Shown here piece after piece: positions 13,169 through 59,046 of a stretch of 64,000 nucleotides of DNA. This DNA is from an uncultured virus (IMG/VR IMGVR_UViG_3300025864_000013) (taxonomy: Duplodnaviria > Heunggongvirae > Uroviricota > Caudoviricetes). Within the stretch, counting starts at the first letter, position 1, and every line of letters begins with the position of its first letter. The notes under the pieces are model-generated. The model worked only from the letters and a program-made list of their open reading frames with translations. It ran no database searches and had not been told where the DNA came from. The stretch lies in the IMG/VR virus record IMGVR_UViG_3300025864_000013. The stretch is one strand, 5' to 3'. Both the position numbers and the translations under genes were made by a program.

Positions 13169-13948
13169 ATGTATCCCTTACAACGATATAACGAGATACA
13201 AAAGGCATTATCTTCATTTCGAAGAGAGTCGGGGATTAAGAGCTTTCCAGCATCATTTCAAAAGACAGCAAGTCAGATATACAAAAGCACAAAGGGCGAA
13301 CCTCTCAAACACGTCCTGCAGAACATTGACATTTCTTACAAAAACATTCTCCCCGAAATTCCTGCCGATGCCTTAACCCAAAGATGTTTTTTTGATTATG
13401 AAGATGCACAAGAATTATTGCCATCTGGTTTAGGGATAAGGTGTCCTCAGCTACGTGGCGATAATTGGATAGAGAGCGACACTGATTACAATATTGTTTT
13501 TAAAGACTTTTCAGACTATTGTAATGCAAATAGAGATATATTTTGGACAAGTTCTGGCGATGCGCCACGGTTCCAATTTGGAGACTTGGACTTTGATGAT
13601 ACGGAAGGCATATATTATTTAGACTTAATAATTGATCGGGAAGACACTTATGGCTACCAGCCCGGAATGGGAGGTAAAAAGAACTTTGGAATAGGTGCTT
13701 CTGAATTAAAAGCACCTATTAAGGAGCTAGAGGATGAAATACCAGAAGAACCAGAAGAAAAAACAAGGCCAGTAAAAGATGATATTGAGATCCGTAGAAT
13801 TGAAGCGGAAACGGAAAAGATAAAAGCCTCAAAAGAAAAACTCGAAGAACTTAATAAAGCGGTAGAAAGCCTTGATAAGAAGTTTGACCGTGGATTAATA
13901 AGCAAAATAGAATATAAAAAATACCTTAAAAAAATATATGAAATCTAA
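13169..13948 (+). CDS. polymerase-partner protein, copy 2
   Basis: paralog of 949..1830; ends LNKAVESLDKKFDRGLISKIEYKKYLK. Confidence 0.7.
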   Translation: MYPLQRYNEIQKALSSFRRESGIKSFPASFQKTASQIYKSTKGEPLKHVLQNIDISYKNILPEIPADALTQRCFFDYEDAQELLPSGLGIRCPQLRGDNWIESDTDYNIVFKDFSDYCNANRDIFWTSSGDAPRFQFGDLDFDDTEGIYYLDLIIDREDTYGYQPGMGGKKNFGIGASELKAPIKELEDEIPEEPEEKTRPVKDDIEIRRIEAETEKIKASKEKLEELNKAVESLDKKFDRGLISKIEYKKYLKKIYEI

Positions 13949-13986
13949 TTAATTGCATATATTGCCGTATCAAAAACCTCAATACA

Positions 13987-14757
13987 ATGATTATCACCCG
14001 TTCCAAACAATCATACAACATTGCCCTTAAAAATATATCGGCAAAGGGGAACTATACCATTGATTTTGATGGCAGTAGACAAACCATTGTCAGGGGTAAA
14101 AGAAAAATACTTAAACTTTCTGCCTCAAAAAATACAATCTTAACGGACGAATCAGTTAATATTAAGGTGCTCTTTAGTGTTGTCAAAGCCGCATTCTCCC
14201 GCTACATAGTTAAAAAAACAGACTTTAACCCAGAGATAATTGCCTCAACTCACTCATCTTGCTATTCAAACAGGGAATTATGGGAGAAAATACCAAAAGA
14301 TGCTGAAATAATTCATATTGATGCTAGGCATTGTTATTGGAGAATCGCTATGTTATTAGGTTATATCACACAAAAAACCTATAAAGAATACCTTGATAAT
14401 GATGAATTAAAAACGCTTAGAAATATTGCATTGTCCAGGATAACATCAAAACATAAGAGAGAATATTATCTAAACCATAAAAAGATAAATGTAATTGAAT
14501 GCGACCTTACCCTCCATACAAGGCTTTATGATAATATCAGGCATTATACCTATAATAACTCAGGGGACATAAAAGAAGCTATCCCTGATTATTGTATTGC
14601 TTACCGTGTTGATGGTATTTACATGCTCCCTGATGGCTTAAAAAAGGCAAAGGAAATTTTCAAAAAGAACGGGCTACTCTTTAAAATTCAGAAATTTGTA
14701 AAGGTTGATGAAAAATATTGTGTTGATGAGAATGGAGAATTAAAAAAGATTTTATAA
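13987..14757 (+). CDS. minimal family-B-like DNA polymerase/nucleotidyltransferase, copy 2
   Basis: IDARHCYW, LRNIALS, YRVDGIY; paralog of 1833..2687. Confidence 0.6.
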   Translation: MIITRSKQSYNIALKNISAKGNYTIDFDGSRQTIVRGKRKILKLSASKNTILTDESVNIKVLFSVVKAAFSRYIVKKTDFNPEIIASTHSSCYSNRELWEKIPKDAEIIHIDARHCYWRIAMLLGYITQKTYKEYLDNDELKTLRNIALSRITSKHKREYYLNHKKINVIECDLTLHTRLYDNIRHYTYNNSGDIKEAIPDYCIAYRVDGIYMLPDGLKKAKEIFKKNGLLFKIQKFVKVDEKYCVDENGELKKIL

Positions 14758-14778
14758 ATTTGGCAAAACCTTATTCAA

Positions 14779-15057
14779 ATGAAAATATTCAAGCATTCCG
14801 AAAACTCTGAATTATTCCAGATAAAAGAGATTACCGACGAGCAGCTGATCGCATTTAATGATATTTGTAAGAACTATAAACAGTCTCTATTGCAGATTAT
14901 CAAAATGCCAGACCATCAGATGAAGCAATTCGCGCCCGGCAATCCTGATCTGGCCCGTGAGGCAATAAGACTTCAAATTAAAACCTGCATGGCTTATGAA
15001 ATGGCTTTTGCTGACGTATTAGCTATTGGAGATCAACCAAAACCTAAAGATAATTGA
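14779..15057 (+). CDS. hypothetical protein
   Basis: ORF track. Confidence 0.6.
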   Translation: MKIFKHSENSELFQIKEITDEQLIAFNDICKNYKQSLLQIIKMPDHQMKQFAPGNPDLAREAIRLQIKTCMAYEMAFADVLAIGDQPKPKDN

Positions 15058-15830
15058 GCAATAATCCTAAAATATTACTCGCTGCACCTATTAATATAGT
15101 AAAGGCTTACTGTTTGTTTGGTGCGGATGGCTGGTTAAATGCCATCAAAGAACTGGATTACGACAACTATGACATTATGCTAGTTGATAATAGCCCAAGT
15201 CCTGTATTCGCTCAAAAAATACGTGATTTAGGTTTTTATTGCTCTCATCTTATTCCAGATTATGCTGAAACACGCTATTTACTACTTCATAGTCTAGACA
15301 TTATAAGAGACAGGGTATTGTTAGGGAGTTATGACTTCTTTTTTTCTTTGGAGTGTGATGTATTCCCTCAAAAGAATATTATTAATAGGTTACTGGCCCA
15401 TAATAAAGAAGTTGTCGGCACTACCTATTGGACTGGTCAAGGATATAATTCATATCTGAACCTGCAGATTCTTGACATTTTACATAAGGACTACGAAAAT
15501 CACAAGCTCGAATCAAAGGTGAGGGATATGAGTTTTGAAGAAGCTCAGTTGTTTATGGATGGAACCTGCAAGCCTGTTTATGCTAATGGGATTGGTTGCG
15601 CTTTAATAAGCAGGGAAATAGTCGAAAATATACCTTTCAGAATAGATCCGGCAGATAGTGGATTTCCTGATAGTTTCTTCCATCAGGATTTATGGAGAAA
15701 TAGAATTGATAATTATGTTGACACAAGCATTATTCCGCTTCACCGTAACTCTAATTGGAGTACAATACTTGGAGATACACAGCATAAGAAATTGGCAGCG
15801 AGTAAGGGGCAAATGATAATTAAAAAATAA
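15054..15830 (+). CDS. GT-A (GT2-like) glycosyltransferase
   Basis: MLVDNS, FFSLECDV (DxD-like), GIGCALISR, PDSFF. Confidence 0.75.
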   Translation: MSNNPKILLAAPINIVKAYCLFGADGWLNAIKELDYDNYDIMLVDNSPSPVFAQKIRDLGFYCSHLIPDYAETRYLLLHSLDIIRDRVLLGSYDFFFSLECDVFPQKNIINRLLAHNKEVVGTTYWTGQGYNSYLNLQILDILHKDYENHKLESKVRDMSFEEAQLFMDGTCKPVYANGIGCALISREIVENIPFRIDPADSGFPDSFFHQDLWRNRIDNYVDTSIIPLHRNSNWSTILGDTQHKKLAASKGQMIIKK

Positions 15831-15841
15831 AACAATAACCC

Positions 15842-16051
15842 ATGCGAAAACAAAATAAGCCTTTCAAAAAAGGCGATAGAGTTATTATAGTTGGCAATAT
15901 TCCTTTTGCATTAAAAAAACAGCCAAGGCCCTTACTTGGAAGGGTGACAAGTGTTGATGGTTCATACACATTAGTGCGCCCTAGATATAAAAGATGGGAA
16001 GCTGAATTTTATCCCAGTGAACTACGCCATATTAAAAATAAACAGCCATGA
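15842..16051 (+). CDS. small SH3/KOW-like protein
   Basis: FKKGDRV...GRVTSV. Confidence 0.55.
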   Translation: MRKQNKPFKKGDRVIIVGNIPFALKKQPRPLLGRVTSVDGSYTLVRPRYKRWEAEFYPSELRHIKNKQP

Positions 16052-16359
16052 AAAAGACTAAAAAGTTCTATGTTTTTGTTAATACTATTGAAGGAAATAA
16101 AAAATATCCGGTTAGGTATTGGATTGACAATACTGGAGTAAAGCATTACCAATGGAAACTATTGAAAGGTAGTGATTTAACCGAAAATCAAATATATGAT
16201 TTATATAAATTTTTAGTCCCATGTTGCAGCAGACAGATACAATATGCTGTATCAAATGCTTTGTATGACACTGGTAAACTTACAGTAGCTCTCCGTGATG
16301 AAATAACGGTTGGAATATTAAAATATTTAAAAGAGATTAATCTGGTTCTGCCGGAGTGA
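16048..16359 (+). CDS. hypothetical protein
   Basis: ORF track. Confidence 0.55.
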   Translation: MKKTKKFYVFVNTIEGNKKYPVRYWIDNTGVKHYQWKLLKGSDLTENQIYDLYKFLVPCCSRQIQYAVSNALYDTGKLTVALRDEITVGILKYLKEINLVLPE

Positions 16360-16380
16360 AACCAATAAAATAATATAGTC

Positions 16381-16629
16381 ATGGAAATGTTTAAAAACGA
16401 ACAGGAAATTAATGAATTTGTAGAGGAATTTAAAACACATTTTTCGGGAAGCTCTGATTATATGAGTGGTGTAAATGATGGTGCTTATTCGATGTTAAGA
16501 AAAATTAAAAGCACAACAGTAAATGCAAATGAACCATTACCGGAATGTTTACATAACCAATATTGTGATAAACAAACTACTGACTTGCATTGTATGAGTA
16601 AAACAGGATGTAATTTCAAGGTAAAATAA
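16381..16629 (+). CDS. hypothetical protein
   Basis: ORF track. Confidence 0.5.
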   Translation: MEMFKNEQEINEFVEEFKTHFSGSSDYMSGVNDGAYSMLRKIKSTTVNANEPLPECLHNQYCDKQTTDLHCMSKTGCNFKVK

Positions 16630-16635
16630 ACAGTC

Positions 16636-17055
16636 ATGGAAAATATTTATCATTATTTCATTGATCTGGAATTTAATAATCCAAAGGAAAGTATTAGCAC
16701 TTGCGGATTAAGTACAAAAAAAGTATATCCTATTTATGGGACAAATAACTTAAACCTTGTTACTTGCGAAAAATGCAATAAGATTATCTATGCGGCATTA
16801 GATTATAAATACCTTATTTTAAAGGGGCATGAGAATATAAGTTTAGGGCTGCAATTATCCACCAAAAGGGGAGATTTACAGCACATGGAAATTACAAGAG
16901 CATTACCTGATAAATGGCACGAGAAAGAGGGATGGATTAAGTGGGGCATTAAAGGTAGTTCTGTTGCTGAAATCAATCACCTTAAAGATAGTATTTTAAA
17001 CCGAATAAACTATCTGGGATTAATGGAGAAAACATTTGAATTTAGCTATGAGTAA
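16636..17055 (+). CDS. hypothetical protein
   Basis: ORF track. Confidence 0.55.
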   Translation: MENIYHYFIDLEFNNPKESISTCGLSTKKVYPIYGTNNLNLVTCEKCNKIIYAALDYKYLILKGHENISLGLQLSTKRGDLQHMEITRALPDKWHEKEGWIKWGIKGSSVAEINHLKDSILNRINYLGLMEKTFEFSYE

Positions 17056-17105
17056 AATACAATAAATACAGAAAATTATATACAAAATTACTTAAAAATT
17101 ATATA

Positions 17106-17642
17106 ATGGACGCAAAAGACGCAAAAAACCATATGGAGGATCTGAAAAATGAACTAGGGTTACTCCTATTTCACGAAGAAACACTAAAGGCTGAAATGAA
17201 ATCTTTGAAACCAAAGTTTGAATCGGGGATTGTCCGGCCAATGATAAGCACCATCAGGAATATTACAGCAAAAGATTTGGAGATAGATGTTATTCCGGCA
17301 GATATGGCAAGTAAGGAAACTATTGAAGCCCGAAAACAGTATTTCTATGCTGCAAATGAACTTGCCCAGATCACAGTTGCAATTCAGACAAAGAAAGACC
17401 TTTATAATGGGTATAAAGATCATATCAAACAGGAATTGGATATGCTCGCTAAACCATGTACCGACACAATGATATATGATGCTTATAAAAAGGCCTGTCT
17501 CTTAGACCTTGTTCTTAACTTACCAGAACGTGAGGCCCTTGATGGAATAACTAAAAATCTTCCTTCATTACTTGCATCCGACAAAGAAAAGAGACTTACT
17601 CTATATGAGACACTTCAAAATATAATTTTACAACACTCGTAA
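17106..17642 (+). CDS. coiled-coil hypothetical protein
   Basis: ORF track. Confidence 0.6.
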   Translation: MDAKDAKNHMEDLKNELGLLLFHEETLKAEMKSLKPKFESGIVRPMISTIRNITAKDLEIDVIPADMASKETIEARKQYFYAANELAQITVAIQTKKDLYNGYKDHIKQELDMLAKPCTDTMIYDAYKKACLLDLVLNLPEREALDGITKNLPSLLASDKEKRLTLYETLQNIILQHS

Positions 17643-17645: not shown

Positions 17646-18395
17646 ATGTATAAAGGTAAAACAGTACTCATAACCGGTGAAAGTCGTGGAGTCGGACTTG
17701 GACTCGGATTATATTTTTTAGAGAACAATGCAACTGTTATTGGATTAAGCAGGGTTTGTCCAGAGAGTTTATGTAACCTCCCAGGCGTAAGTGATATTCC
17801 TATTGAAATGACTAACGTTCATTCTTTTATTTGGAATAATTGCGACCTTTCCGATATTGATAGCATAATGGGTGTATTCCAAATGCTCACGGAGCAGAAG
17901 ATTAAAATTGACATTTGTATAAATAACGCTGCAGTCCTTACCTCTCAGTATATATTAAAAATGCCATTACAAAAGATCACAGATATGGTTAATGTAAACC
18001 TTATAGCACCAATACTTGTGTCCAGGGAGGCCGCAAAACTTATGCGCAATGAATATGGCAGGATAATAAATATTTCATCTATGGCCGTCGCGCTGGAGCC
18101 ACAAGGGGACTCTGTTTATGCTGCTGCAAAAGCGGGGCTGAATATTTTTACCAATATTATAGCAAAAGAATTGAACTTCATGAACATAACTTGCAACACC
18201 CTAGCTATATCGGCTATTGAAACGGATATGTTAAAGCAGCTCAATAAAGAAAAGGTTGATACGGTTATAGCGAGGTTGCCAATACCTCGCTATGCTAAAA
18301 TGGAGGATATAACGAATGTTATTGACTTCTTTTGTTCTAAGAAAAGTAACTACGTCACGAGTCAAACAATATACCTTGGAGGGGTGCATAGATGA
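17646..18395 (+). CDS. fabG: SDR oxidoreductase (3-oxoacyl-ACP reductase-like)
   Basis: TGESRGVG, NNA, SS, YAAAK catalytic motif. Confidence 0.85.
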   Translation: MYKGKTVLITGESRGVGLGLGLYFLENNATVIGLSRVCPESLCNLPGVSDIPIEMTNVHSFIWNNCDLSDIDSIMGVFQMLTEQKIKIDICINNAAVLTSQYILKMPLQKITDMVNVNLIAPILVSREAAKLMRNEYGRIINISSMAVALEPQGDSVYAAAKAGLNIFTNIIAKELNFMNITCNTLAISAIETDMLKQLNKEKVDTVIARLPIPRYAKMEDITNVIDFFCSKKSNYVTSQTIYLGGVHR

Positions 18396-18607
18396 TAACA
18401 TCAGGAATAGTTTGTGATAATTACAAGGTTGAAAAGTTTAAGAAGGAACTTGTAAAGGCCGGATTCTCTGATTTTGTGGTAACTGAAAATAAAAAAGGAG
18501 CCTTGGTTCAGACTTCAATAATCCAAGTAAAAATGGAGACAACCGATATTAAAAGAATGAAGAAACTTTGTCAGAAGGTCGAAATGCACTTTAAACTATC
18601 AAACTAA
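18392..18607 (+). CDS. small hypothetical protein
   Basis: ORF track; overlaps both neighbours. Confidence 0.55.
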   Translation: MITSGIVCDNYKVEKFKKELVKAGFSDFVVTENKKGALVQTSIIQVKMETTDIKRMKKLCQKVEMHFKLSN

Positions 18608-19566
18608 TGGAAGGAATCGGAATTTTAAAAGCAGCACATTATCTGCCAAGTAAAATCAATACCAATGCTGATGTTTGTGAAAATATCTTCGGCCTAACTG
18701 AGGATTGGATAATTCTGAAAACCGGAATTAAAAAACGTCACCATGTACAATATTCTGATACTTGTGGGCTGATGGCTCGTGAAGTAGCACTACGATTAAT
18801 TGAAGAGACTGACCCTAGGTTAATAGGATTAATAATTGTCTGCTCCTTTAGCCAAGATTACATGCTACCTCCAATGTCGGCACTTATACATTATGATATT
18901 GCAGCATCAAAACACTGTCAGATAATGGATATTAATGTTAATTGCGTGGGACTTATTACCGGAACTACTATTGCAGTAGAACGGATGCTATGTAATGATG
19001 AGATTGATTATGCGCTCGTTATTGGAGCTGAGATACTTTCCCGTTTTGTTGACAAGACAGATAAATTCACAGCCCCATTTTTCTCAGACGGGGCAAGCGG
19101 AGTGCTCTTAGGCAGGGTAGATAACGGAGCATTGACATTGCCTAAAAAGGCAGGGTTTATTCACTCTAAATTTTGCACCGATTCATCCGTTTATGAATCG
19201 GTACGATTGAAACGTAGAGGATTTATTGAACATAACGGTAAAGCTACATGGAATCAAGCAATAACAAACCTGCCTTATGTAGTGAATGGAGTAATTTATG
19301 AAGCAGGATTCAAACCAGAGGAGATTGATTTTTTTATCTTTCACCAGGCAAATGAAGTACTGATACACTATATTATGGATAAGATGAAGATCCCGCGAGA
19401 AAAAACATATACTAATGTAGCTGAAATAGGTAATACCGGAGCTGCTAGTATAGGTATTGCGCTTAGTGAGGCTATGGAGAAAGGATTAATAAAAGAAGGA
19501 AGCCTTTTAGTTATGGCAGGAGTCGGGGCCGGATTTAACTTTGGTGCTAATCTATGGAGGATGTGA
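18607..19566 (+). CDS. fabH: 3-oxoacyl-ACP synthase III family protein
   Basis: intact Cys-His-Asn triad: NCVG, FHQAN, GNTGAAS. Confidence 0.9.
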   Translation: MEGIGILKAAHYLPSKINTNADVCENIFGLTEDWIILKTGIKKRHHVQYSDTCGLMAREVALRLIEETDPRLIGLIIVCSFSQDYMLPPMSALIHYDIAASKHCQIMDINVNCVGLITGTTIAVERMLCNDEIDYALVIGAEILSRFVDKTDKFTAPFFSDGASGVLLGRVDNGALTLPKKAGFIHSKFCTDSSVYESVRLKRRGFIEHNGKATWNQAITNLPYVVNGVIYEAGFKPEEIDFFIFHQANEVLIHYIMDKMKIPREKTYTNVAEIGNTGAASIGIALSEAMEKGLIKEGSLLVMAGVGAGFNFGANLWRM

Positions 19567-19567
19567 T

Positions 19568-20461
19568 ATGAAAAGAGATTTTAAGCCAATGACTTTTTTG
19601 ACAGATATACTAAAGGCTATTGACAATATAGATAGTGTTCATGGCTATAAAATAGTAGAATCAATATCTACAATGATTGATAAAGATTATCGTGAGATTG
19701 CTGACGTTGTCTTAAATTACTTCCACTCGCAAAACACAAGCCCGGAAACGGTAGCGGCGGATTATATGCATGTAGTTAGCGACATGAAGTGTGAAATGTT
19801 ATTCTTTGAACGTCACGGAAAGTACCGTTGCGTAAATCAAGAAGAAGCATTTAATACGGTTTATTCTCGGTTGGACGTGATGCGGTATTACATGAATGGT
19901 CTTATAATATCTCATATCCTTTGGAGTCATCACTTTAGCATGACGAAGTATTACCGTATATCATTACAGAACCTTTTTTCTCAATCAAATAAAGCCATAC
20001 ATGTTTTAGATGTAGGGGCCGGACATGGTTTATATTCACTGATTGCTAAAAATAATATTAAGAATAGTATTATTGATGTTGTTGATATTAGTAGCGAATC
20101 TTTAAAAATGACTAAGGCCATAATAGGGAGTGAGAATATTCTGTATAACCAGGCTAATATAATTCGGTTTAATCCTGGGAGAAAATATGATTTGATTATT
20201 CTTGGTGAGATACTCGAACATCTGGATAAGCCTGAAGAGATGCTATTAAAAGCAAAAGATTTACTTTCTGACCAAGGATATATTTTCTTAACAGTTCCCA
20301 CTAATGCTCCGGCAATAGATCATGTTTATTTATTTACGTCAGGCACGGAGATTTTGAACATGATAGCTGCTACTGGCCTAATAATAACTTCTGCAATATC
20401 TTGTGCTGCAGAATTAAACAATCAAACTAAACTAATTGGAGTCCTTTGTAAAAAACAATAA
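19568..20461 (+). CDS. class I SAM-dependent methyltransferase
   Basis: VLDVGAGHG, YDLIILGEILEHL. Confidence 0.85.
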   Translation: MKRDFKPMTFLTDILKAIDNIDSVHGYKIVESISTMIDKDYREIADVVLNYFHSQNTSPETVAADYMHVVSDMKCEMLFFERHGKYRCVNQEEAFNTVYSRLDVMRYYMNGLIISHILWSHHFSMTKYYRISLQNLFSQSNKAIHVLDVGAGHGLYSLIAKNNIKNSIIDVVDISSESLKMTKAIIGSENILYNQANIIRFNPGRKYDLIILGEILEHLDKPEEMLLKAKDLLSDQGYIFLTVPTNAPAIDHVYLFTSGTEILNMIAATGLIITSAISCAAELNNQTKLIGVLCKKQ

Positions 20462-20463
20462 CC

Positions 20464-20829
20464 ATGAAATCACAAGCTAAAAGAATTGAGCAATTTAAGG
20501 CAGTCCAGAAAAGAGGACTTGAACTATTTGAAAAAAAGAATACTGATTACGGTGATGCTTTCGCTGACTTTGGAGTAGTCGGAATCATAATCCGGGTACA
20601 AGATAAGATGAGAAGGTTTATTAGCGTCTCTGCAAATGGCGCAGCCCTAGTTAATGACGAAGGGCTTAGAGATACTTTGATTGACATGGCAAATTACGCC
20701 ACTATGGCTTTAATGCTTATGGATGAGCAGGAAAAAGGAACTCCGACGGTATTAACGACTCATGATCTGTTAGAGATTGACGAAGCAAAGGCTGATCAAT
20801 GTTTTGCAGAGAATGACTTAATAATATAA
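20464..20829 (+). CDS. DUF1599/nucleotide-modification-associated (MazG-like) protein
   Basis: KKNTDYGDAF...DK..R...DTLIDMANYA. Confidence 0.8.
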   Translation: MKSQAKRIEQFKAVQKRGLELFEKKNTDYGDAFADFGVVGIIIRVQDKMRRFISVSANGAALVNDEGLRDTLIDMANYATMALMLMDEQEKGTPTVLTTHDLLEIDEAKADQCFAENDLII

Positions 20830-20834
20830 GCATT

Positions 20835-21254
20835 ATGAATATTTCGGATATAAAAATCGGAGATTTCGCTAAAGCGAAACGTCTCGTCCTGCAAAAAGAT
20901 GTTAACGACTTTATTTCTCTTAGTGGCGACAATAATAAACTACACATAGATCCGGCCTATGCAGGAAACACTTATCTTCAGGGGCCTGTTGTTCATGGAA
21001 TGTTTGGAATGGCCCTTATCTCTGCCGTGATAGGAACCCAGCTACCCGGCGACGGTGCTCTATGGTTTAGTCAGGAGACATCTTTTACTAAACCCATAAA
21101 AGTAGGCGACTACCTTACAATAGAGGTTAGGGTTATTGATAAACATATATCTTTGCAATATATTAAGCTCAAAACGCTGGTTATAAACCAAAATAATGAT
21201 ATTTGCATAACAGGTACGGCACTTGTAAGATTAATACCACAAGATCATGAATAA
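20835..21254 (+). CDS. MaoC-like (R)-hydratase/dehydratase
   Basis: SGDNNKLH...VHGM...LPG...F.KP. Confidence 0.9.
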   Translation: MNISDIKIGDFAKAKRLVLQKDVNDFISLSGDNNKLHIDPAYAGNTYLQGPVVHGMFGMALISAVIGTQLPGDGALWFSQETSFTKPIKVGDYLTIEVRVIDKHISLQYIKLKTLVINQNNDICITGTALVRLIPQDHE

Positions 21255-22260
21255 ACAGGAACTACGCAAGGCTGGCAAATTAAAGAAAGCCATAATCTTT
21301 GACTGCGATAATACTCTATGGAAAGGAATACTCGGAGAGGAAGAAATTACCCCGGATAATGAGATCCAGAATGATATTGTATTCTTAGCGAACCATGGAG
21401 TAATAATTGGACTTTGTAGTAAAAATAATGAAGGCGATGTGATGAACGCTTTAAAAACCCAGATCCTTACGGAAGAGTATATTTCAGTTAAAAGAATTAA
21501 CTGGAAAGACAAAGCATCAAACCTTAAAGAGATTGCTGAAGAACTAAATATCGGAACTGATGCGATAATGTTTGTTGACGACTCTTGCTTTGAGATAGGC
21601 ATGTTAGAAAGTGCTGTTCCTGAAATACTTTGCATATATCCTTATGAATTGATCGAGAAAGCTCACGAATGGTTTGATCTTACCGGAACCTTTGGGAAGA
21701 CAAAGGAATATAAAGAGCAATACCAGAGAGTTAAGGCAAAAGAACAATTTACTGATATTAATGAGTATTTAAAATCACTTGGCATGGTGCTGACAATAAA
21801 GTGCAATGAACCGGCTTATATTGAAAGAATTGCAGAACTTAGCCAAAAAACAAACCAGTTTAACCTTGCTCTTAAAAGGTATTTAGTGGCAGACATAGCT
21901 TCCCTCATTGATAATGTTGACGTTTATACTTTGTCGGTAAAAGACAAGTTTGGAGATAGCGGAGTGACTGGTGTGGCAATAGTTTTTGGTTCACGGATTG
22001 ATACTTTTCTGCTTTCATGCCGGATTCTTGGCCGTGGTATTGAGTACGCTTTCATGGATAGGATAATTGACGACATGAGAAAATCAGGAGCCGATGTTGT
22101 TTATGGTGCTTACGTGAAGTCTGCTAAAAATGAACAGGTAGAATATTTTTATACAAAGATTGGCTTTGAATGGAACCACAAAAGCGGAGAACATCAAATC
22201 TATTCTATTGACATACATGATTATAAACCACAAGCAAAAAACCACTTCACTTATGAATGA
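21247..22260 (+). CDS. fkbH: FkbH-like HAD-IIIC glyceryl-ACP synthase
   Basis: FDCDNTLW, SKNN, FVDDS, KTNQFNL, LSCRILGR. Confidence 0.9.
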   Translation: MNKQELRKAGKLKKAIIFDCDNTLWKGILGEEEITPDNEIQNDIVFLANHGVIIGLCSKNNEGDVMNALKTQILTEEYISVKRINWKDKASNLKEIAEELNIGTDAIMFVDDSCFEIGMLESAVPEILCIYPYELIEKAHEWFDLTGTFGKTKEYKEQYQRVKAKEQFTDINEYLKSLGMVLTIKCNEPAYIERIAELSQKTNQFNLALKRYLVADIASLIDNVDVYTLSVKDKFGDSGVTGVAIVFGSRIDTFLLSCRILGRGIEYAFMDRIIDDMRKSGADVVYGAYVKSAKNEQVEYFYTKIGFEWNHKSGEHQIYSIDIHDYKPQAKNHFTYE

Positions 22261-22480
22261 AATAATCCGGCAAATAATGGCAGAGAGTTTTGATATTCCT
22301 GTCGAACAAATTACCCCAGACTCAAATGATCATAATATTGAGGGATGGGACTCGCTGCACCATATCAGAATGATTGTGGCACTCGAAAGGAAATTTGATA
22401 TTACTATTCCCGATGAAGAGGTCGGCAATATGGTAAGTTATAAATTCATTGAACAGGTAATAAATAAATTGATATTATGA
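22253..22480 (+). CDS. acyl carrier protein
   Basis: WDSLHH phosphopantetheine serine; ATG 22253. Confidence 0.9.
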   Translation: MNEIIRQIMAESFDIPVEQITPDSNDHNIEGWDSLHHIRMIVALERKFDITIPDEEVGNMVSYKFIEQVINKLIL

Positions 22481-23067
22481 CAAAAACAGAACATAAATTT
22501 CCGTGCCTGATTTGTGGCGAGTTTATCACACTTTCAAAAGTGATGGAGAAAGACGCTAATTTTATTTATGGATTGCGTAAAAATGAAGCTGCTCAATATC
22601 TTAATTGTCCGGTGAATTATTCTATTGAATCGCAATTAGCCTGGCAAAATTCCAGAACTAGTGATGAGGTAAATTATATAATCTATGATAATGAAGGTTA
22701 TAAGGTCGGCATGGTATCAATATATGATTGCGACTGGTTGAATGGCGTGTCTAATGTAGGTAGGCTATTGCTCAGTAATCAATTTGTCCACAAATCAACT
22801 CCTTACGGATTAGAGGCATTGCAGCTAACCTATGCTTATGTATTAGAGCAAATGAAATTCCGGAAGATTGCCGGCACAATAAATACCCGCAACGAAAAGG
22901 TTTACAGCCTTCAGAAATACTTAGGCATGAAGGATGAGGGATTGTTTGTTAAGCATGTTCTCTTAAACGGAGTACCACAGGACTTACACTTCCTTTCTTT
23001 ATTTGCTGAAGATTTTCCGGCATACGCTGAAAATATTCAAAAACTACTTGAAAAATTCAGGCAATGA
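22477..23067 (+). CDS. GNAT/RimJ-like N-acyltransferase
   Basis: PseH-like layout, N.KV.SL.K.LGMK.EG. Confidence 0.8.
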   Translation: MTKTEHKFPCLICGEFITLSKVMEKDANFIYGLRKNEAAQYLNCPVNYSIESQLAWQNSRTSDEVNYIIYDNEGYKVGMVSIYDCDWLNGVSNVGRLLLSNQFVHKSTPYGLEALQLTYAYVLEQMKFRKIAGTINTRNEKVYSLQKYLGMKDEGLFVKHVLLNGVPQDLHFLSLFAEDFPAYAENIQKLLEKFRQ

Positions 23068-23477
23068 AAAGTAGCGTAAGGGACTGTAAATTCATAAACC
23101 TGCAGACCGTGCTTAGGGATGAAGGCAGTATGTCTATTGCGGAACAGGATAAAGAGATCCCATTTGTAGTAAGGAGGGTATATTACATTTACAATGTTCC
23201 CGACACCGGCAATAGGGGCTTTCATGCTCACAAAGGACTCTATCAAATGATTATTCCGGTACATGGTTGGTTTCACATAAAGCTCGACGACGGTACTGAA
23301 AAGAGAATTATACAACTTTTTGATCCGACAAAAGGACTTTTGATCGTACCAGGAATATGGCGGGAGCTTTCGGACTTTACAAACGATGCTGTATGCCTGG
23401 CTTTAGCCTCAGAGAAATATAACGAATCGGATTATATAAGAAATTATACGGACTTTTTAAAATTCAAATCAATATGA
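23064..23477 (+). CDS. fdtA: dTDP-6-deoxy-3,4-keto-hexulose isomerase (FdtA/QdtA cupin)
   Basis: RVYYIY..P....RGFHAHK...Y.ESDYIR.Y..F. Confidence 0.9.
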   Translation: MKSSVRDCKFINLQTVLRDEGSMSIAEQDKEIPFVVRRVYYIYNVPDTGNRGFHAHKGLYQMIIPVHGWFHIKLDDGTEKRIIQLFDPTKGLLIVPGIWRELSDFTNDAVCLALASEKYNESDYIRNYTDFLKFKSI

Positions 23478-25492
23478 TAACTGCCCTTTGCGTAAACTAC
23501 AATACGCCCGGACTACTGGAAAGATTATTAACCAGTTTCAGGAGATACTACCCTGATATTTCTTTCCTTGTCATTGATGGATCTGATCAGGCTTATTACA
23601 ACCAGATAAGAGATTTCCCGAAAAGGTTCAATGTAGAGTTGAAACACTTTGATTTCAATATTCATCACGGCCCAGGCATGGCGTATGGAATAAGACAGAT
23701 TAAAACAGATCAGATATTGCTACTCGATACTGATATTATAGTACTCCGCGGCGGGTGGATAGAATTATTACAACAAAGACTACTGCCAGATAATTACGGG
23801 ATAGGGGATATTCAGAAAGAATCATTCATGAGAGGCGGGAGAAAAGAAGTAATAGACTATCTTCATCCGGCATGCGCCCTGGTTAACAGAAAAGTAATTC
23901 TGCAATATCCATTGCCTACCAAGGCCGGATGTCCTTTAATGGATGCAATGGTTAATATCTATCAGAACAGAAAAGATATATTGCAAAAATCAGACCTTAT
24001 AACAAATGACTTTTGGAATCATACGGATATTTATATTCAGCACGGCCACGATCATAAAGGAATGGGCACGGTCGTAAAAACAGGAGGTTATCATTATGAA
24101 CCGGAGAAAGGTAAAAAAGAAGGAGCAATAATCGACACAATAGGAATAGTCATTGCTACCTTTCAGAGGCCGGACGGCAAAACACCTTATTACCTTAACC
24201 GTACCCTCGAATCAATAGAGGCGCAAACATTCAAGGATTACAGGGTCTATGTTATGGGTGATGCCTACACTGATGATGATGAGTTAAGGGAAATAACTTC
24301 AAAGTTCAGTAATGTAATAACACACAACCTCGATAAGTCAGTAGAAAGAGAACGCTACCCCAAAGGAGGTCAATACCTTTGGTGTTGTGGAGGTGTCACA
24401 GCTGCAAATAAAGGAATTGATTATGCACTAGCTGATGGTATTGAATATATCTGCCATCAGGGCCATGATGACACCTGGGAGCCTAACCACTTAGAATTGA
24501 TAAATAAAGTTATTCGGGAGAAACACCCTTTCTTTATATGCACATCTGCTTCTTACGGCTTAGGCCATTTACCTCCACATCCGCTGACAAACGATGTTGT
24601 GCCTTACCTTCCGGTTCCTGCCGGGGTAATTGCATCCAGCGTGTGTATAAAATATACTGAAACAAAGCTGAGGGTAATGGATCGCTTTCATGAAGAAGGA
24701 ATAATGTCACCCTCTGATGCCTACCTATGGGAGTGTATGGATAAGGAAATGATAAAAGAGGATAAAAAAGGATTCTTGATAACTACATTAACCTGCCGTC
24801 ACGATGAAGAAGGATATGTACTTAATGGAGGTGATTTTAAGTCAAGTGCAGTCATTAAAAAGAAAGATGAAAAACCGCAGTCGGTTATTTCTGAGGTAAC
24901 TGCTATTATTACAACTCGTAATAATCTAAAGGACTTTAAGAAGTGCTATAAGTCGATTAAAAAGTTTCATGCCGAAATACCGGTAATAATCATTGACCAG
25001 TCTGAGATTACTGATAAATGTTGCGACTATGTTTGCTCATTAAATTTAAACCCCGGCAATGTTACATCAGTTCTATTTGGCGAATATATAGGCACGGGAA
25101 AGGCACTAAGAGCAGGTATTAGCATGGTGGGGACAAAGTACGCAATGATTGTTGATAGCTGTATGGAGATGAAGAAAAGTCCAATTCCTGAGATGCTGAA
25201 ATTAATGGAACTGAATACTTTCGCAATAGGAGAACTGGAGTTGCATGATTCATGCGGAGTGACTTACGGGAATAGCGAGCTTTCATCAGACGAAACGCCT
25301 ACCTTATCATTTAAAAATTATCCATTCTTTCAATTGATAAATATTGGAAACTATAAGAAGTTCCCGGCTTATGTAAATCATGAATCTCCTTGGTTCAAGG
25401 CTATGAATGAAATAAAGAAACAGGGATTGTCCTCAAAGATATTAAAGACGTTCCCTGTTACCCGAAGTAAAATGAATGATTATGTAGAATAA
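23474..25492 (+). CDS. three-domain GT2 glycosyltransferase
   Basis: three GT-A repeats (LLDTD, GHDD, IVDS). Confidence 0.8.
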   Translation: MITALCVNYNTPGLLERLLTSFRRYYPDISFLVIDGSDQAYYNQIRDFPKRFNVELKHFDFNIHHGPGMAYGIRQIKTDQILLLDTDIIVLRGGWIELLQQRLLPDNYGIGDIQKESFMRGGRKEVIDYLHPACALVNRKVILQYPLPTKAGCPLMDAMVNIYQNRKDILQKSDLITNDFWNHTDIYIQHGHDHKGMGTVVKTGGYHYEPEKGKKEGAIIDTIGIVIATFQRPDGKTPYYLNRTLESIEAQTFKDYRVYVMGDAYTDDDELREITSKFSNVITHNLDKSVERERYPKGGQYLWCCGGVTAANKGIDYALADGIEYICHQGHDDTWEPNHLELINKVIREKHPFFICTSASYGLGHLPPHPLTNDVVPYLPVPAGVIASSVCIKYTETKLRVMDRFHEEGIMSPSDAYLWECMDKEMIKEDKKGFLITTLTCRHDEEGYVLNGGDFKSSAVIKKKDEKPQSVISEVTAIITTRNNLKDFKKCYKSIKKFHAEIPVIIIDQSEITDKCCDYVCSLNLNPGNVTSVLFGEYIGTGKALRAGISMVGTKYAMIVDSCMEMKKSPIPEMLKLMELNTFAIGELELHDSCGVTYGNSELSSDETPTLSFKNYPFFQLINIGNYKKFPAYVNHESPWFKAMNEIKKQGLSSKILKTFPVTRSKMNDYVE

Positions 25493-28657: not shown

Positions 28658-29575
28658 TTAAATCGGACTTGGGAAATTCTCCCTTATCCTAGTATTAATA
28701 ACTCCAATATGTTTCTTCACATAATGCTGCGTTGCCTCTAATTTGGTGTGTCTCAACTGATCCATAAGTTCACGCATAGAAATACCAGACATATGAAGCC
28801 TGGAAGCTCCGGTGTGTTTAAATGAGTATAACTTATACCCTTTCGATAAATTCAAATGATCCCTTATGATGTCAAACCGATAACGAAGCATATTGATAGA
28901 GCATGGTTTTGTACCAAACCGCTTTTTGTTTCCAAAAATAAATAAACTATTATCTGCTTTGTCAATCCCATACTCAAAACAAATATCAATAAGTTGCTGT
29001 GGCATCGTAACGCTCTGTTGGAGTTTATTCTTTGCATTCTCCTGTCGAACCATGATTAGTCCGTTATGAAGATCAATATCTCCAACCTTCAGCAACCTTA
29101 ATTCCTTGCCGGGTCGAATGAAACAATAGTACTGAATGATACAAGCCAAATACAACTGAGGATCGAGTCTTTTAATTTCCGGGAGTAATATTTTTAAGTC
29201 CTCTAGCTGGATTACTTCTGCGCCCTGGTCTTTTTTCTTTCTATGAAAAACAACTAAATCAAAAGGCATAATATCTACTTCTCCTCTTTTTTGAGCATAA
29301 GTGAAAAGCTGTCGAATATTTAAGAAGTACTTTTGACATGTAGGTTTATCAAGACCTTTGTCTCTTGCAAGAAAGTAAAAGAAATCAGAAACAGTCTGTG
29401 GTGTAATTTTCCTAATTGATAAATTACCACACCCATGTTCTTTTAACCAATCAGTAAAGACAGGAAGTTGACCTGCATATGTCATATAAGATTTATGCTG
29501 AATACCAACCTCCTTTTCAAGAAGAAATCCCGGTAAAAGTTCTGCTGGTGTCTTATATTTTCTAAAAATCTCCAT
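28658..29575 (-). CDS. tyrosine recombinase (no arm-binding domain)
   Basis: FIRPGKELR, AK, YSFKHTG, QLRH...TQHY. Confidence 0.9.
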   Translation of the reverse strand: MEIFRKYKTPAELLPGFLLEKEVGIQHKSYMTYAGQLPVFTDWLKEHGCGNLSIRKITPQTVSDFFYFLARDKGLDKPTCQKYFLNIRQLFTYAQKRGEVDIMPFDLVVFHRKKKDQGAEVIQLEDLKILLPEIKRLDPQLYLACIIQYYCFIRPGKELRLLKVGDIDLHNGLIMVRQENAKNKLQQSVTMPQQLIDICFEYGIDKADNSLFIFGNKKRFGTKPCSINMLRYRFDIIRDHLNLSKGYKLYSFKHTGASRLHMSGISMRELMDQLRHTKLEATQHYVKKHIGVINTRIRENFPSPI

Positions 29576-34027: not shown

Positions 34028-34618
34028 TTATGCAAATCTTATAAATCCTAAAAGTCTCAATCCGTTTGTTGTTGTGTAGTCTATCGGCCTCGTTTTCTCT
34101 GCAACGATATAACCTTCCGTGCCGCCTAGTGTATTAGTATTTCCCTCAATCGTTGTAAAGTTTCCAAAACCTAGTTTCTTAACAATTCCTGCGTGACCGT
34201 TCCATGTCGGAGTGCCATTTTGATAATCTCTCCATATTGCCATGTCTCCTGCTCTTGGTATTGAAGAGACAACAAAGCTCGGATCATTCTGCAGGTTCTC
34301 CCATGTTGTCCAAGTGCTGCCGGTTACTTTTTCCAGGATCTTAGCTTTGAGAAAATCAGGAGCCATATTATACCATGATACTTTCACGAAGAAAACACAC
34401 CAGGCATCGCCCGGCTGCCATCCTACCTGTTCCATTAGTTTTTGAAACTCAGCATTAGTAAAGCCCATATTGCCGGCAATTTCTGTTTGTCCTACAAGAC
34501 TCTCAGAGAAGGTAACAATCCTTTTACGGTTACGAATGGCAAATAACAAACCAAGGCCGACAAGGGCACTCGCAATGCCGACGTATAGATAAACCTTATT
34601 TTTGCCCGTAACTACCAT
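34028..34618 (-). CDS. membrane-anchored CHAP amidase
   Basis: AWCVFFV, GHAGIV, TIEGNT; N-terminal TM. Confidence 0.85.
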   Translation of the reverse strand: MVVTGKNKVYLYVGIASALVGLGLLFAIRNRKRIVTFSESLVGQTEIAGNMGFTNAEFQKLMEQVGWQPGDAWCVFFVKVSWYNMAPDFLKAKILEKVTGSTWTTWENLQNDPSFVVSSIPRAGDMAIWRDYQNGTPTWNGHAGIVKKLGFGNFTTIEGNTNTLGGTEGYIVAEKTRPIDYTTTNGLRLLGFIRFA

Positions 34619-34622
34619 AATG

Positions 34623-34838
34623 CTATACTGATTTTTTAATCGTTCTTGCAACAAGTACGCTAAGTCCTACTGCTGCGACAATGCCAACAACGGCAATTAT
34701 CACTGTCTGCATAGGAATATCAACAGAAACATTTGTGTTCAGTCCTTTGTCGCCGATCAGTCCCCCGAATATATCTCCTCCGGTTGAATTGTGTTGTTTC
34801 TCCCCTGATTTATTTGTTTTTTTTGGAAAATATATCAT
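34623..34838 (-). CDS. small membrane protein
   Basis: C-terminal TM. Confidence 0.6.
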   Translation of the reverse strand: MIYFPKKTNKSGEKQHNSTGGDIFGGLIGDKGLNTNVSVDIPMQTVIIAVVGIVAAVGLSVLVARTIKKSV

Positions 34839-40128: not shown

Positions 40129-40141
40129 GATTTCTGTATTT

Positions 40142-40576: not shown

Positions 40577-40587
40577 AATTTTACGTT

Positions 40588-41001: not shown

Positions 41002-41013
41002 AATTTCTATTTT

Positions 41014-41748: not shown

Positions 41749-41753
41749 AATGA

Positions 41754-41957: not shown

Positions 41958-41963
41958 TGTCCT

Positions 41964-59043: not shown

Positions 59044-59046
59044 AAT

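Follow-up and report, generated by a model that had tools for sequence, protein, structure and literature searches.

A viral operon that may encode a pared-down Bacteroidota glycan module for an N-acylated amino sugar

What might a virus build with a dedicated acyl carrier protein, acyl-loading and condensing enzymes and a set of sugar genes, and on what would it place the product? The question is raised by an operon in a stretch of 64,000 nucleotides (hereafter the window) from an uncultured virus, IMG/VR record IMGVR_UViG_3300025864_000013. Positions 17646–25492 on the + strand hold 11 ORFs whose neighbours overlap by 1–8 nt or are separated by at most 5 nt, which fits a single operon; all 11 are open with their catalytic motifs intact, and 10 of them reach a gathering score in Pfam. 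An earlier sequence-only reading had listed an SDR, FabH, a methyltransferase, DUF1599, MaoC, FkbH, an ACP, GNAT, FdtA and a triple GT2, and each was recovered on the + strand where that reading had placed it. It had also described small phage-type ORFs interleaved among them, which holds for two, orf71 and the DUF1599 gene, and for no others.

The acyl side opens with a FabG-like SDR, a putative ketoreductase of 249 aa (17646..18395; adh_short_C2, E = 2.2e-35), which scores 148 bits against TIGR01830, under the cut-off of 297.75, and has the NNAA and YxxxK motifs, as do 10 of 10 relatives. The KAS III (FabH-type) condensing enzyme of 319 aa (18607..19566; ACP_syn_III_C, 5.2e-29) has 2ebd as its best solved match (E = 1.9e-45) and scores 234.3 bits against NF006829, under the cut-off of 249; NCBIfam equivalog cut-offs are missed by this enzyme, the SDR and the ACP. 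Its Cys (NCVG), His (HQAN) and Asn (GNTG) are likewise present in all 10 relatives. The SAM-dependent class-I methyltransferase (19568..20461, 297 aa; Methyltransf_23, 3.1e-13, residues 141–258) lies in an ORF, 19541–20461, that opens at TTG 19541, the likely start being ATG 19568, and its LDVGAGHG motif is found in seven of the eight relatives identified. The MaoC-type (R)-hydratase/dehydratase (20835..21254, 139 aa; MaoC_dehydratas, 2.3e-15) shares GDxNxxH with all nine of its relatives. The short-form FkbH, a HAD-IIIC phosphatase/acyl loader of 337 aa (21247..22260), covers positions 3–321 of the 323 in TIGR01686 at 217.9 bits (cut-off 146.65), and its DCDNT, SKNN, VDDS and SCR motifs recur in 10 of 10 relatives. 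The ACP (22253..22480, 75 aa; PP-binding, 30.3 bits against a cut-off of 20.8) belongs to an ORF opening at TTG 22160, and its start is most likely ATG 22253, giving an 8-nt overlap with the FkbH stop; the window and all 10 relatives share the serine motif DS[LIV].

On the sugar side, the GNAT acyltransferase (22477..23067, 196 aa; Acetyltransf_3, 34.2 bits against a cut-off of 25.4) matches solved acetyltransferases weakly (best E 1.1e-4), none of them a sugar N-acyltransferase, and matches PseH weakly as well (4.4e-4). The FdtA/QdtA-type dTDP-4-keto-6-deoxyhexose 3,4-ketoisomerase (23064..23477, 137 aa; PF05523, 2.6e-44) matches solved FdtA 2pa7 at E = 2.8e-31 and QdtA 4o9e at 4.2e-28, with its HAH motif also in all six relatives found. 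The last gene encodes a GT2 protein of 672 aa (23474..25492; PF00535, 93.8 bits, three stretches) with GT-A N-terminal regions at about residues 9–62, 222–358 and 461–613; no strong hydrophobic segment was found in it (maximum Kyte–Doolittle value over 19 residues, 1.49), and it appears to be soluble. Its family numbers only 17 proteins.

The two interleaved genes stand apart. Pfam, NCBIfam and PHROGs gave no match for orf71 (18392..18607), to which no function is assigned; it is not present in any relative, and its position is held by an MBL-fold gene in cellular loci and by a YopX gene in the viral contig L007. The DUF1599 protein (20464..20829, 121 aa; PF07659, 5.3e-10; phrog_1485, 2.7e-21) has no match in the viral contigs L003–L007, nor in the 8 kb around FkbH in any of 80 genome loci, and is, judged by these searches, a phage-type insert outside the conserved cassette.

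That the DNA is viral, as the sequence-only reading took it to be, is borne out in part: the backbone carries a Zot/A32-like ATPase whose family is virus-dominated, two jelly-roll models, small membrane proteins and phage-type small genes, but capsid, portal and terminase families gave no match in the window. The element is likely a virus, and the ATPase, the two jelly-roll proteins and the small membrane proteins suggest that it is probably a tailless one; its host is probably a Bacteroidota-type bacterium. The conserved backbone module of 33–57 kb does not include the cassette, whose neighbours in its block are DNA methylases and small early-type genes instead of structural ones, and an integrase with a Phage_int_SAM_5 domain is encoded 3 kb away at 28658–29575. 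With an early-type block and an integrase so near, conversion of the host surface fits as well as decoration of the particle.

Cellular counterparts were sought in 80 genome loci that contain a relative of FkbH, searching 8 kb around FkbH for 10 parts of the cassette. Relatives of the ACP occur in 59 loci, of the SDR in 38, MaoC in 35, KAS III in 30, the methyltransferase in 25, GNAT in 8 and FdtA in 7. Four loci (L100, L062, L042 and L040) have the same cassette order with eight of the 10 parts and a fifth (L030) has seven, at 39–54% identity, and a sixth (L038) has six parts at 43–59% without GNAT or FdtA. The common order is SDR, KAS III, methyltransferase, MaoC, FkbH, ACP and then GNAT; FdtA is shared too, although it lies upstream of the cassette in the Bacteroidota loci and downstream in the window. 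In L042 (Chitinophagales) and L100 (Cyclobacteriaceae), one flank consists of an RmlB-like dehydratase and FdtA and the other of AMP-ligase, GNAT, DegT, Wzx (in L042) and GT2 genes, and the recurrence of the cassette order in these amino-sugar loci supports the earlier acyl-sugar interpretation. The Bacteroidota loci thus have an RmlB-like dehydratase, an MBL-fold gene, AMP-ligase, DegT, Wzx and other GT2 genes that the window lacks, whereas the window's GT2 family, orf71 and DUF1599 have no match within 8 kb of FkbH in the cellular loci. They also differ in carrying a KR domain fused to MaoC and an N-terminal extension of about 240 aa on FkbH. The window MaoC is 43–47% identical to the N-terminal part of these MaoC::SDR fusions, and the viral SDR is 51–56% identical to the stand-alone FabG-like SDR of the same loci, as against 24–35% to the fused KR; the GNAT is 42–47% identical to the GNAT adjoining DegT. 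A literature search found no paper on this cassette in Bacteroidota glycan loci.

Further relatives were found in five IMG/VR tailed-phage contigs, L003–L007, which retain SDR, KAS III, MaoC, FkbH and ACP at 34–65% identity to the window (SDR 52–62%), with the methyltransferase gene in L003, L005 and L006, as in cellular loci, and absent from L004 and L007. All viral copies have lost the KR domain and the FkbH N-domain, and the short FkbH form extends at 47–81% identity across 65 protein clusters among the matches listed. Sugar-side genes vary among the contigs, with hexapeptide transferases, short DegT-like genes and an MT24::GT2 fusion: L003 has GNAT (65% identical), FdtA (48%), a Polysacc_synt_2 dehydratase and a DegT-like gene, and a hexapeptide acyltransferase is added in L005 and L007, with a DegT-like gene in L005. 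The middle GT2 domain is 55–59% identical to GT2 domains adjoining the cassette in L004–L007. The backbones, in contrast, are not related to that of the window: only one of 105 window ORFs outside the cassette matches these contigs (YopX-like, 6283–6657). In L004, L005 and L007 a large terminase gene (phrog_6681) lies immediately downstream of the cassette, followed in L005 and L007 by a portal gene (phrog_6547).

In a tree of FkbH, the one cassette protein for which trees were built, the window and these five contigs form one clade (SH-aLRT 100) nested in a set of 16 rows (96) in which Bacteroidota make up all the others, with Bacteroidota loci as its nearest branch. MaoC and the methyltransferase give a different picture, as phage copies are no closer than cellular ones (34–39% versus 43–47% for MaoC, 39–42% versus 39–43% for the methyltransferase). 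We suggest that the cassette may have been acquired once from Bacteroidota and later moved between unrelated virus backbones. The cassette is not a recent host capture, because its best cellular relatives are only 40–59% identical and its composition (GC = 0.376) is in line with the rest of the window. Nor does the assembly chimera that had been named as a refutation, along with a near-identical recent capture, agree with this composition or with the codon usage, which correlates with that of the two other window blocks at r = 0.93 and 0.92.

What, then, might the operon make? FkbH places a glyceryl unit on an ACP, from which a dehydratase and a ketoreductase can give lactyl-ACP. In the best reading, which we infer from family chemistry and synteny, a short glycerate-derived hydroxy-acyl-ACP would become N-linked to a 3-amino-3,6-dideoxyhexose, and virus-restricted GT2 domains would install the product; we infer the acyl structure and the acceptor likewise. 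1,3-bisphosphoglycerate would be the source of the C3 glyceryl unit that FkbH loads onto the operon's ACP, first made holo by a host PPTase, and the glycerate origin proposed earlier remains plausible. KAS III, the FabG-like reductase and the MaoC dehydratase, acting once each, could then carry out one fatty-acid-type round of extension and tailoring with host malonyl-ACP, and the methyltransferase would cap the product, giving a short (C3–C5) hydroxy- or enoyl-acyl-ACP, possibly methylated, or alternatively a lactyl-type intermediate. The lactyl route raised by the sequence-only reading is weakened because the KR domain fused to MaoC in cellular loci has been lost from the viral cassette, and with that domain missing the genes reveal neither this route nor the order in which the steps occur. 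FdtA would convert host dTDP-4-keto-6-deoxyglucose to the 3-keto sugar, an aminotransferase from outside the window would aminate it, and the GNAT is proposed to acylate the sugar amine with the ACP-borne group. The soluble three-domain GT2 could finally assemble a short glycan with the acyl sugar on an intracellular acceptor. The Pfam scan of window ORFs agreed with the earlier remark that aminotransferase and PPTase are missing and found no 4,6-dehydratase, Wzx or Wzy, so at least three steps would depend on host enzymes, or the GNAT would have another substrate.

The earlier acyl-sugar interpretation is thus partly supported, and we lean, by a modest degree, towards an operon that is a viral, pared-down Bacteroidota surface-glycan module, taken once from Bacteroidota and making an N-acylated 3-amino-3,6-dideoxyhexose. 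This virus-borne carrier-protein pathway most likely builds a small hydroxy-acyl group on its own ACP, joins it to an amino sugar and feeds a virus-specific triple GT2. As for the acceptor, a virus-made protein, that is, the particle, is our tentative candidate, and a host lipid-linked glycan, somewhat less probable, comes second; DNA is the least supported target among virion, host surface and DNA. A temperate element might use the same pathway to place its sugar on a host lipid-linked O-antigen or capsule unit, so that lysogenic conversion alters the cell surface and blocks superinfection, a possibility that we doubt but take seriously. The integrase and the position of the cassette outside the backbone module speak for it, as do the Wzx and polysaccharide GT2 genes of the source loci, and a host already making a related sugar would supply the aminotransferase and dehydratase. 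However, the window has no flippase, polymerase, ligase, initiating transferase or Gtr-type gene, the small GT2 family has no match within 8 kb of FkbH in the 80 cellular loci, and in three tailed-phage contigs the cassette adjoins the terminase gene.

FkbH, a dedicated ACP and a FabH-like enzyme are together the signature of tetronate pathways, and with the full Cys-His-Asn triad retained in KAS III they could make a free small molecule, tetronate- or butenolide-like or another acyl metabolite, the sugar genes being separate. This is quite improbable, as translational coupling ties the acyl genes to GNAT, FdtA and GT2, amino-sugar genes surround the cassette in the nearest cellular loci, and the window yielded no polyketide synthase, thioesterase or export gene. 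Still more improbable is hypermodification of viral DNA bases by the GT2 and the DUF1599 protein with the acyl sugar as donor: the Pfam name of DUF1599 is 'nucleotide modification associated domain 1' and several DNA methylases are in the window, but a base hydroxymethylase, a kinase and other hypermodification families were not found there and no other cassette copy has DUF1599. A look-up by term in a study of viral DNA that carries glycosylated 5-hydroxycytosine (PMC13326640) likewise gave none of DUF1599, GT2, acyl, amino sugar or Nmad. We give equally little credence to a decaying cargo that no longer makes a product. The viral copies do lack the KR domain, the FkbH N-terminal region, the MBL gene, AMP-ligase and DegT of the cellular loci, and the aminotransferase is missing; yet every ORF is open with intact motifs, and the retention of short FkbH in so many clusters, with the cassette on two unrelated backbones, argues for selection rather than decay.

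Among known systems, OzmB-type glyceryl-ACP formation and the DH-KR-FkbH-ACP loading modules of trans-AT polyketide synthases are mirrored by the cellular MaoC::SDR, FkbH and ACP arrangement; in the window, by contrast, the proteins are free-standing, there is no polyketide synthase and the viral copies have no KR. The FdtA/FdtB/FdtC route leads to dTDP-3-acetamido-3,6-dideoxygalactose, and the window FdtA, matching 2pa7 and retaining HAH, would belong to such a route, but no FdtB aminotransferase accompanies it and a GNAT with a proposed acyl-ACP donor replaces the hexapeptide acetyltransferase. The flagellin glycosylation locus of Campylobacter jejuni presumably has fabH2, acpP2/3 and a methyltransferase as neighbours. 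In strain NCTC 11168 its cj1295–cj1304 region holds the FkbH-domain gene cj1302, linked, in the portion of the source available, to the dimethylglyceric-acid decoration of pseudaminic acid (PMC7099621). By description, a sugar there bears an acyl group derived from glycerate, as proposed for the window, although that sugar is a flagellin-borne nonulosonic acid, the locus is cellular and the enzymology is putative (PMC7099621). In Flavobacterium psychrophilum, wfpC–wfpG of the O-polysaccharide locus encode KAS, ACP, KAS, KR and a PglD-like transferase, with a proposed route that puts 3,5-dihydroxyhexanoyl onto Qui2NAc4N (PMC6519341). As described in the available part of that source, these genes differ from the window in lacking FkbH, MaoC and a methyltransferase, in belonging to a cellular locus, and in using a PglD-like transferase and UDP-Qui2NAc4N rather than a GNAT and a dTDP-3-amino sugar (PMC6519341). 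By gene description they nonetheless resemble it in placing a dedicated ACP, ketoacyl-ACP synthases and a ketoreductase within a glycan locus, where a short hydroxy-acyl group would be passed by an acyltransferase to an amino sugar, as we propose for the virus (PMC6519341).

The cassette (17646–25492, + strand) consists of 11 co-directional ORFs on the window ORF map, in the order SDR, orf71, KAS III, methyltransferase, DUF1599 protein, MaoC, FkbH, ACP, GNAT, FdtA and GT2. In Pfam and NCBIfam searches, ten of the 11 scored above curated Pfam cut-offs, in agreement with the gene families named in the sequence-only reading; the eleventh, orf71, has no family in either collection. Because every junction is an overlap of 1–8 nt or a gap of at most 5 nt, we regard the genes as a single translationally coupled operon, which ends 160 nt before the switch to − strand genes. 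The listed ACP ORF opens with TTG at 22160, and its likeliest start is the ATG at 22253, which gives 75 aa and an 8-nt overlap with the FkbH stop; the methyltransferase most likely starts at the ATG at 19568. Neither a promoter scan (68 vs 60.3) nor a terminator scan (8 vs 10.6) rose above shuffles. In a crude hydropathy scan the 11 cassette proteins showed no strong membrane segment (maximum 1.83; GT2, 1.49), against scores of 2.27–2.62 for three of the four membrane proteins of the window used as controls. The + strand block that holds the cassette also includes a radical-SAM-like ORF at the window start (2–952; phrog_9298, 2.7e-22), a 398-aa ORF (9453–10649) with a weak phage glycosyltransferase match (phrog_7162, 1.6e-7) and, directly upstream of the cassette, ten ORFs of 69–259 aa (13169–17642) that have no Pfam or PHROGs family and no relative in any locus compared.

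On the acyl side, FkbH matches TIGR01686 over its full length (profile positions 3–321 of 323; 217.9 bits vs a cut-off of 146.65), and the window copy and all 10 relatives retain its DCDNT, SKNN, VDDS and SCR[IV][LI]G motifs, including the C-terminal cysteine of the SCR motif, which is presumably the acyl-enzyme site. The condensing enzyme scores below cut-off with both NF006829 (234.3 bits vs 249) and TIGR00747 (204.7 vs 292.1), and by these profiles it is a member of the KAS III family, not a FabH equivalog; its best solved matches are FabH enzymes (2ebd, 1.9e-45; 1hn9, 6.9e-38). Its xCxG, HQAN and GNTG motifs, placed on the catalytic triad positions known from E. coli FabH, are likewise kept in the window and 10 of 10 relatives. 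KAS III-like acyltransferases of the CerJ type are known; given the intact Cys-His-Asn triad, condensation was judged the likelier role. The SDR is closest to FabG models, again below cut-off (TIGR01830, 148.2 bits vs 297.75), and the classical NNAA and YxxxK motifs are present in the window and in all relatives found in 10 loci; the same holds for the GDxNxxH motif of MaoC. The ACP passes the PP-binding model PF00550 (30.3 bits vs 20.8), falls below the cut-offs of the NCBIfam ACP models (e.g., 40.1 vs 71) and keeps its DS[LIV] serine motif in the window and 10 of 10 relatives. The class-I SAM-dependent methyltransferase, the DUF1599 protein and the GNAT (Acetyltransf_3) are all above their Pfam cut-offs.

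On the sugar side, FdtA is assigned by PF05523 (150.6 bits vs 23, E = 2.6e-44) and by the solved FdtA 2pa7 (E = 2.8e-31), and its HAH motif, whose paired histidines are presumably catalytic, is kept in the window and in all six relatives found. The 672-aa GT2 matches PF00535 in three stretches (93.8 bits vs 23.3), with partial NCBIfam matches at residues 9–62, 222–358 and 461–581. Pfam scans of the window ORFs found neither an aminotransferase nor a PPTase, as the sequence-only reading had stated, and no 4,6-dehydratase, flippase or polymerase family. The dTDP-3-amino-3,6-dideoxyhexose pathway is thus represented in the window by the isomerase, without the 4,6-dehydratase and PLP aminotransferase, both of which are encoded in the Bacteroidota loci L042 and L100. 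These absences refer to the window, which is 64 kb of a 78,945-base contig, with 15 kb lying outside it.

A species-genome scan identified 80 loci with an FkbH relative. The dedicated ACP that adjoins FkbH in the window has a relative within 8 kb of FkbH in 59 of them, and within the same distance relatives of the SDR (38 loci), MaoC (35), KAS III (30), methyltransferase (25), GNAT (8) and FdtA (7) were found; the window GT2 and DUF1599 protein had none in any of the 80. Four Bacteroidota loci (L100, L062, L042 and L040) hold eight of the 10 parts searched, and a fifth, L030, holds seven. By Pfam, L042 begins with an RmlB-like dehydratase, FdtA, a 100-aa ORF, an SDR, an MBL-fold protein, KAS III and the methyltransferase, continues with a MaoC::SDR fusion (395 aa), a 582-aa FkbH, (ACP), an AMP-ligase, GNAT and DegT, and ends with a Wzx-type flippase, a GT2, a 445-aa ORF, a second GT2 and an asparagine synthase; the layout of L100 is similar as far as GNAT. 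From this gene company we conclude that in these cells the cassette has been inserted into a surface-polysaccharide locus, within its dTDP-3-amino-3,6-dideoxyhexose pathway; the synteny comparison proposed with the sequence-only reading places the same cassette inside such loci. To our knowledge, no enzymatic study exists of this bacterial cassette, which is far more widespread than its viral derivative.

Relatives are also present in phage contigs. Of 8000 scored candidates, 7192 are related to FkbH at E ≤ 0.001; among the 120 matches listed, 65 clusters (P0002–P0066) are short (322–345 aa) and 47–81% identical, and those from P0067 onward are mostly 536–588 aa long and 43–47% identical, the named ones being Bacteroidia. 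FkbH peptide patterns taken from the window itself recovered no IMG/VR relative, and an alignment-based IMG/VR scan gave 27 loci. Five of these (L003–L007) are 55–61% identical and carry the cassette in the same order, SDR, KAS III, (methyltransferase), MaoC, FkbH and ACP, with L005 and L006 identical over the cassette; the methyltransferase is dispensable, being missing from L004 and L007. Beyond the ACP, L003 continues with GNAT (65%), FdtA (48%), a Polysacc_synt_2 dehydratase, a short DegT-like ORF, several GT2 genes and a methyltransferase, and in L005 and L007 the genes that follow are a hexapeptide acyltransferase, a 233-aa ORF without known function and a Methyltransf_24::GT2 fusion whose GT2 part is 55–59% identical to the middle domain of the window GT2. 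In L005 a short DegT-like ORF precedes the hexapeptide acyltransferase. The two DegT-like ORFs that adjoin the cassette (L003:11530–12159 and L005:11197–11850; 209–217 aa) match only the first ~100 of 360 aminotransferase model positions. In L004, L005 and L007 the cassette runs directly into a large terminase gene (phrog_6681, E = 1e-72 to 1e-80), behind which L005 and L007 also have a portal gene (phrog_6547), and by this gene content these three contigs are tailed phages.

The history of the cassette was examined with a quick IQ-TREE phylogeny of FkbH, the only protein placed on a tree, built from 106 rows (all loci with a match of more than 250 query residues), of which several long-branch IMG/VR rows were flagged. 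The window and L003–L007 group together at an SH-aLRT of 100, inside a 16-row set (96) whose other rows are all Bacteroidota, including L062, L100, L030, L038, L040 and L042. All six viral copies have a MaoC of 129–139 aa and an FkbH of 324–340 aa, compared with a MaoC::SDR fusion of ~395 aa and an FkbH of ~582–588 aa in the cellular loci; the viral copies thus lack both the ketoreductase (KR) domain fused to MaoC and the ~240-aa N-terminal region of FkbH (20835–22260 in the window). A single deletion could account for both losses, since MaoC and FkbH are neighbouring genes. The viral SDR resembles the stand-alone FabG-like gene (51–56%) and not the fused KR (24–35%). Two proteins do not suit so simple a history: the window MaoC is 43–47% identical to the cellular copies versus 34–39% to the phage copies, and the window methyltransferase is equidistant from both.

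Outside the cassette, a single one of the 105 window ORFs, a YopX-like protein (6283–6657), matches L003–L007, which marks the window backbone as unrelated to these phages. That two unrelated backbones carry the cassette shows that viruses pass it on as a unit. The cassette has a GC content of 0.376 and a GC3 of 0.345, both of which fall within the interval set by the window's other two blocks. Its codon usage correlates with that of each block (r = 0.93 and 0.92), and the two blocks correlate with each other at 0.90. The window FkbH and GT2 are each recorded on four contigs in the protein collection, and blastn found no DNA match to the cluster in GenBank phages. An identity of 40–59% to the nearest cellular copies and a composition that matches the window argue against a near-identical host capture or a chimera; judged by its sequence, the cassette is not a recent capture, and no chimera is evident.

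From the observed enzyme families, intact motifs, operon structure and genomic company, we infer a pathway in which FkbH would load a glyceryl unit, derived from 1,3-bisphosphoglycerate, on the operon's ACP. Such loading is the family chemistry of OzmB-type enzymes. In the most economical reading of the viral set, each enzyme would be used once and in the usual order: KAS III would condense the glyceryl starter with malonyl-ACP, the FabG-like SDR would reduce the 3-keto group, MaoC would then dehydrate, and the methyltransferase would methylate the acyl chain, with a C5 dihydroxy-pentenoyl-type chain as the predicted acyl product. The sequence-only reading proposed instead that glyceryl-ACP is dehydrated and reduced to lactyl-ACP, a route suggested by the cellular MaoC::KR beside FkbH; in the viruses, however, this route requires the sole remaining SDR to act at a 2-keto group. 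On the sugar side, FdtA would divert host dTDP-4-keto-6-deoxyglucose, a putative aminotransferase, not encoded in the window, would act after it, and GNAT would then transfer the acyl group. In viruses the cassette is consistently accompanied by the GT2 middle domain, which is the best candidate to transfer the acylated sugar; the other two GT2 domains may add further sugars.

The phage-type genes and families of the window include phrog_98/YopX, phrog_5845, phrog_3362, phrog_17260 and phrog_1485, and it also carries a C5 and two N6 DNA methylases, a DnaA-C-like HTH protein, an integrase and a CHAP hydrolase. No capsid, portal or tail family of PHROG or Pfam was matched in the window, no tRNA gene was found there, and its sole terminase row (phrog_2666) falls on a DUF87 ATPase. 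This 284-aa protein (44365–45219, − strand) has a Walker A motif near its N-terminus, and its nearest Atlas clusters (score 0.99, TM 0.90) have members that are 85–98% viral, with Zot, DUF87 and Pox_A32 in minorities; tblastn found no match to it in GenBank phages. Next to it lies a 224-aa protein (43369–44043, − strand) modelled with a pLDDT of 89 as an N-terminal helix before a jelly roll. The best structural matches of the model include capsid and vertex proteins, namely GFLV (Z 6.7), PR772 chain O (6.3), STIV and phiCjT23 (6.0) and PM2 chain L (5.2); unrelated β-sandwiches are matched as well, and none of 48,161 chains reaches Z 8. Downstream of it are small ORFs (39784–43293, − strand), six of which end in a hydrophobic tail. 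A second protein modelled as a jelly roll, of 260 aa (59047–59829, − strand; pLDDT 81, best Z 6.1), belongs to a very large, tightly conserved family with 2266 relatives; the 120 listed are 62–90% identical and 242–272 aa long, with no named relative among them. We regard this protein as a candidate for the major capsid protein. A 76%-identical relative, P0294, comes from a contig of 84,572 bases, and the metagenome locus L119 is on a contig of equal size. A double jelly-roll capsid protein was not shown by the fold searches, which gave no match at Z 8, and we therefore claim no named virus family for the window.

A backbone module on the − strand (33000–57200) comprises a DarB-like giant protein, a 444-aa basic protein, a Fib_succ_major-domain protein, a Zot/A32-like ATPase, the jelly-roll protein at 43369–44043, the small ORFs, an HExxH protein (38591–39292) and the CHAP hydrolase (34028–34654). 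In a metagenome-locus search with a four-row alignment, this order was kept in six loci (L110, L112, L119, L121, L132 and L138; contigs of 17–85 kb), with looser synteny in other metagenome contigs of up to 135 kb; searches of IMG/VR and of species genomes did not recover the module. It has the look of a set of morphogenesis genes from a tailless virus group not yet sampled, and the element itself is probably a tailless, membrane-containing virus of an unsampled group. The 1628-aa DarB-like helicase of the window (52244–57130, − strand), which carries a zeta-toxin/AAA_33 kinase-type domain at its C-terminus, and an Eco57I-type N6 methylase of at least 845 aa (61421–64000, − strand) match different parts of one phage family, phrog_1685 (DarB-like antirestriction). 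A 346-aa protein (58003–59043, − strand) consists almost entirely of repeats of ~22 residues (type ITQVHN-x-VIQD-x-QSQSIEN) and is possibly a fibre or beta-helix; TRF found no DNA-level tandem repeat in 57900–59100. The 521-aa ORF at 34854–36419 gave no usable Atlas match. A tyrosine integrase with a Phage_int_SAM_5 domain (28658–29575, − strand) lies 3 kb from the cassette end and has no close relative in species genomes. Because species genomes yielded no close relative of it and none of the backbone, the host is deduced only from the Bacteroidota kin of the cassette.

The sequence-only reading left the virion, the host surface and DNA as possible destinations of the acylated sugar, of which DNA is the least supported. 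The location of the cassette bears on the other two: in tailed phages it adjoins packaging genes, as might be expected if the target is a viral protein or the particle, and in the window it is among non-structural genes, which favours the host surface. A particle target is further favoured by the GT2 family, which is tiny and not found in the 80 cellular loci, by the apparent solubility of all cassette enzymes and by the lack of export genes; in favour of a host-surface target are the integrase in the window and the fact that the missing sugar genes could come from a suitable host. Taken to its furthest, the particle reading would place the window in an unrecognised group of large tailless, membrane-containing jelly-roll viruses (contigs of ~60–135 kb) with an A32/Zot-type packaging ATPase, one member of which took the cassette from tailed phages across realms and coats its own particle with a hydroxy-acylated deoxy-aminosugar glycan by means of the virus-only triple glycosyltransferase. 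We offer this whole scenario as speculation that is unlikely to hold in full; if true, a virus of prokaryotes would have its own equivalent of the capsid glycans that chloroviruses and mimiviruses encode for themselves.

Bacterial viruses are known to carry single sugar-modifying genes. A complete carrier-protein line on a viral ACP that would make a custom acyl group for a sugar is, in contrast, absent from the literature searched. A product displayed on particles would matter for host recognition, for stability and for how the particles escape other binding agents, and one that alters the host surface would amount to serotype conversion of a new kind. With its short FkbH, the small viral operon also offers a compact, testable system. 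Literature searches on FkbH in phage, O-antigen, or polysaccharide plus ACP contexts returned nothing on such a cassette, and a 2026 paper that mentions ACP modules in Flavobacterium jumbophages (PMC13573597) is without the cassette described here. Although neither viral nor equipped with the gene set of the cassette, the system with the nearest described logic is the wfpC-G module of F. psychrophilum (PMC6519341), and the next nearest is the FkbH-containing flagellin-glycan locus of C. jejuni, which has been linked to dimethylglyceric acid (PMC7099621).
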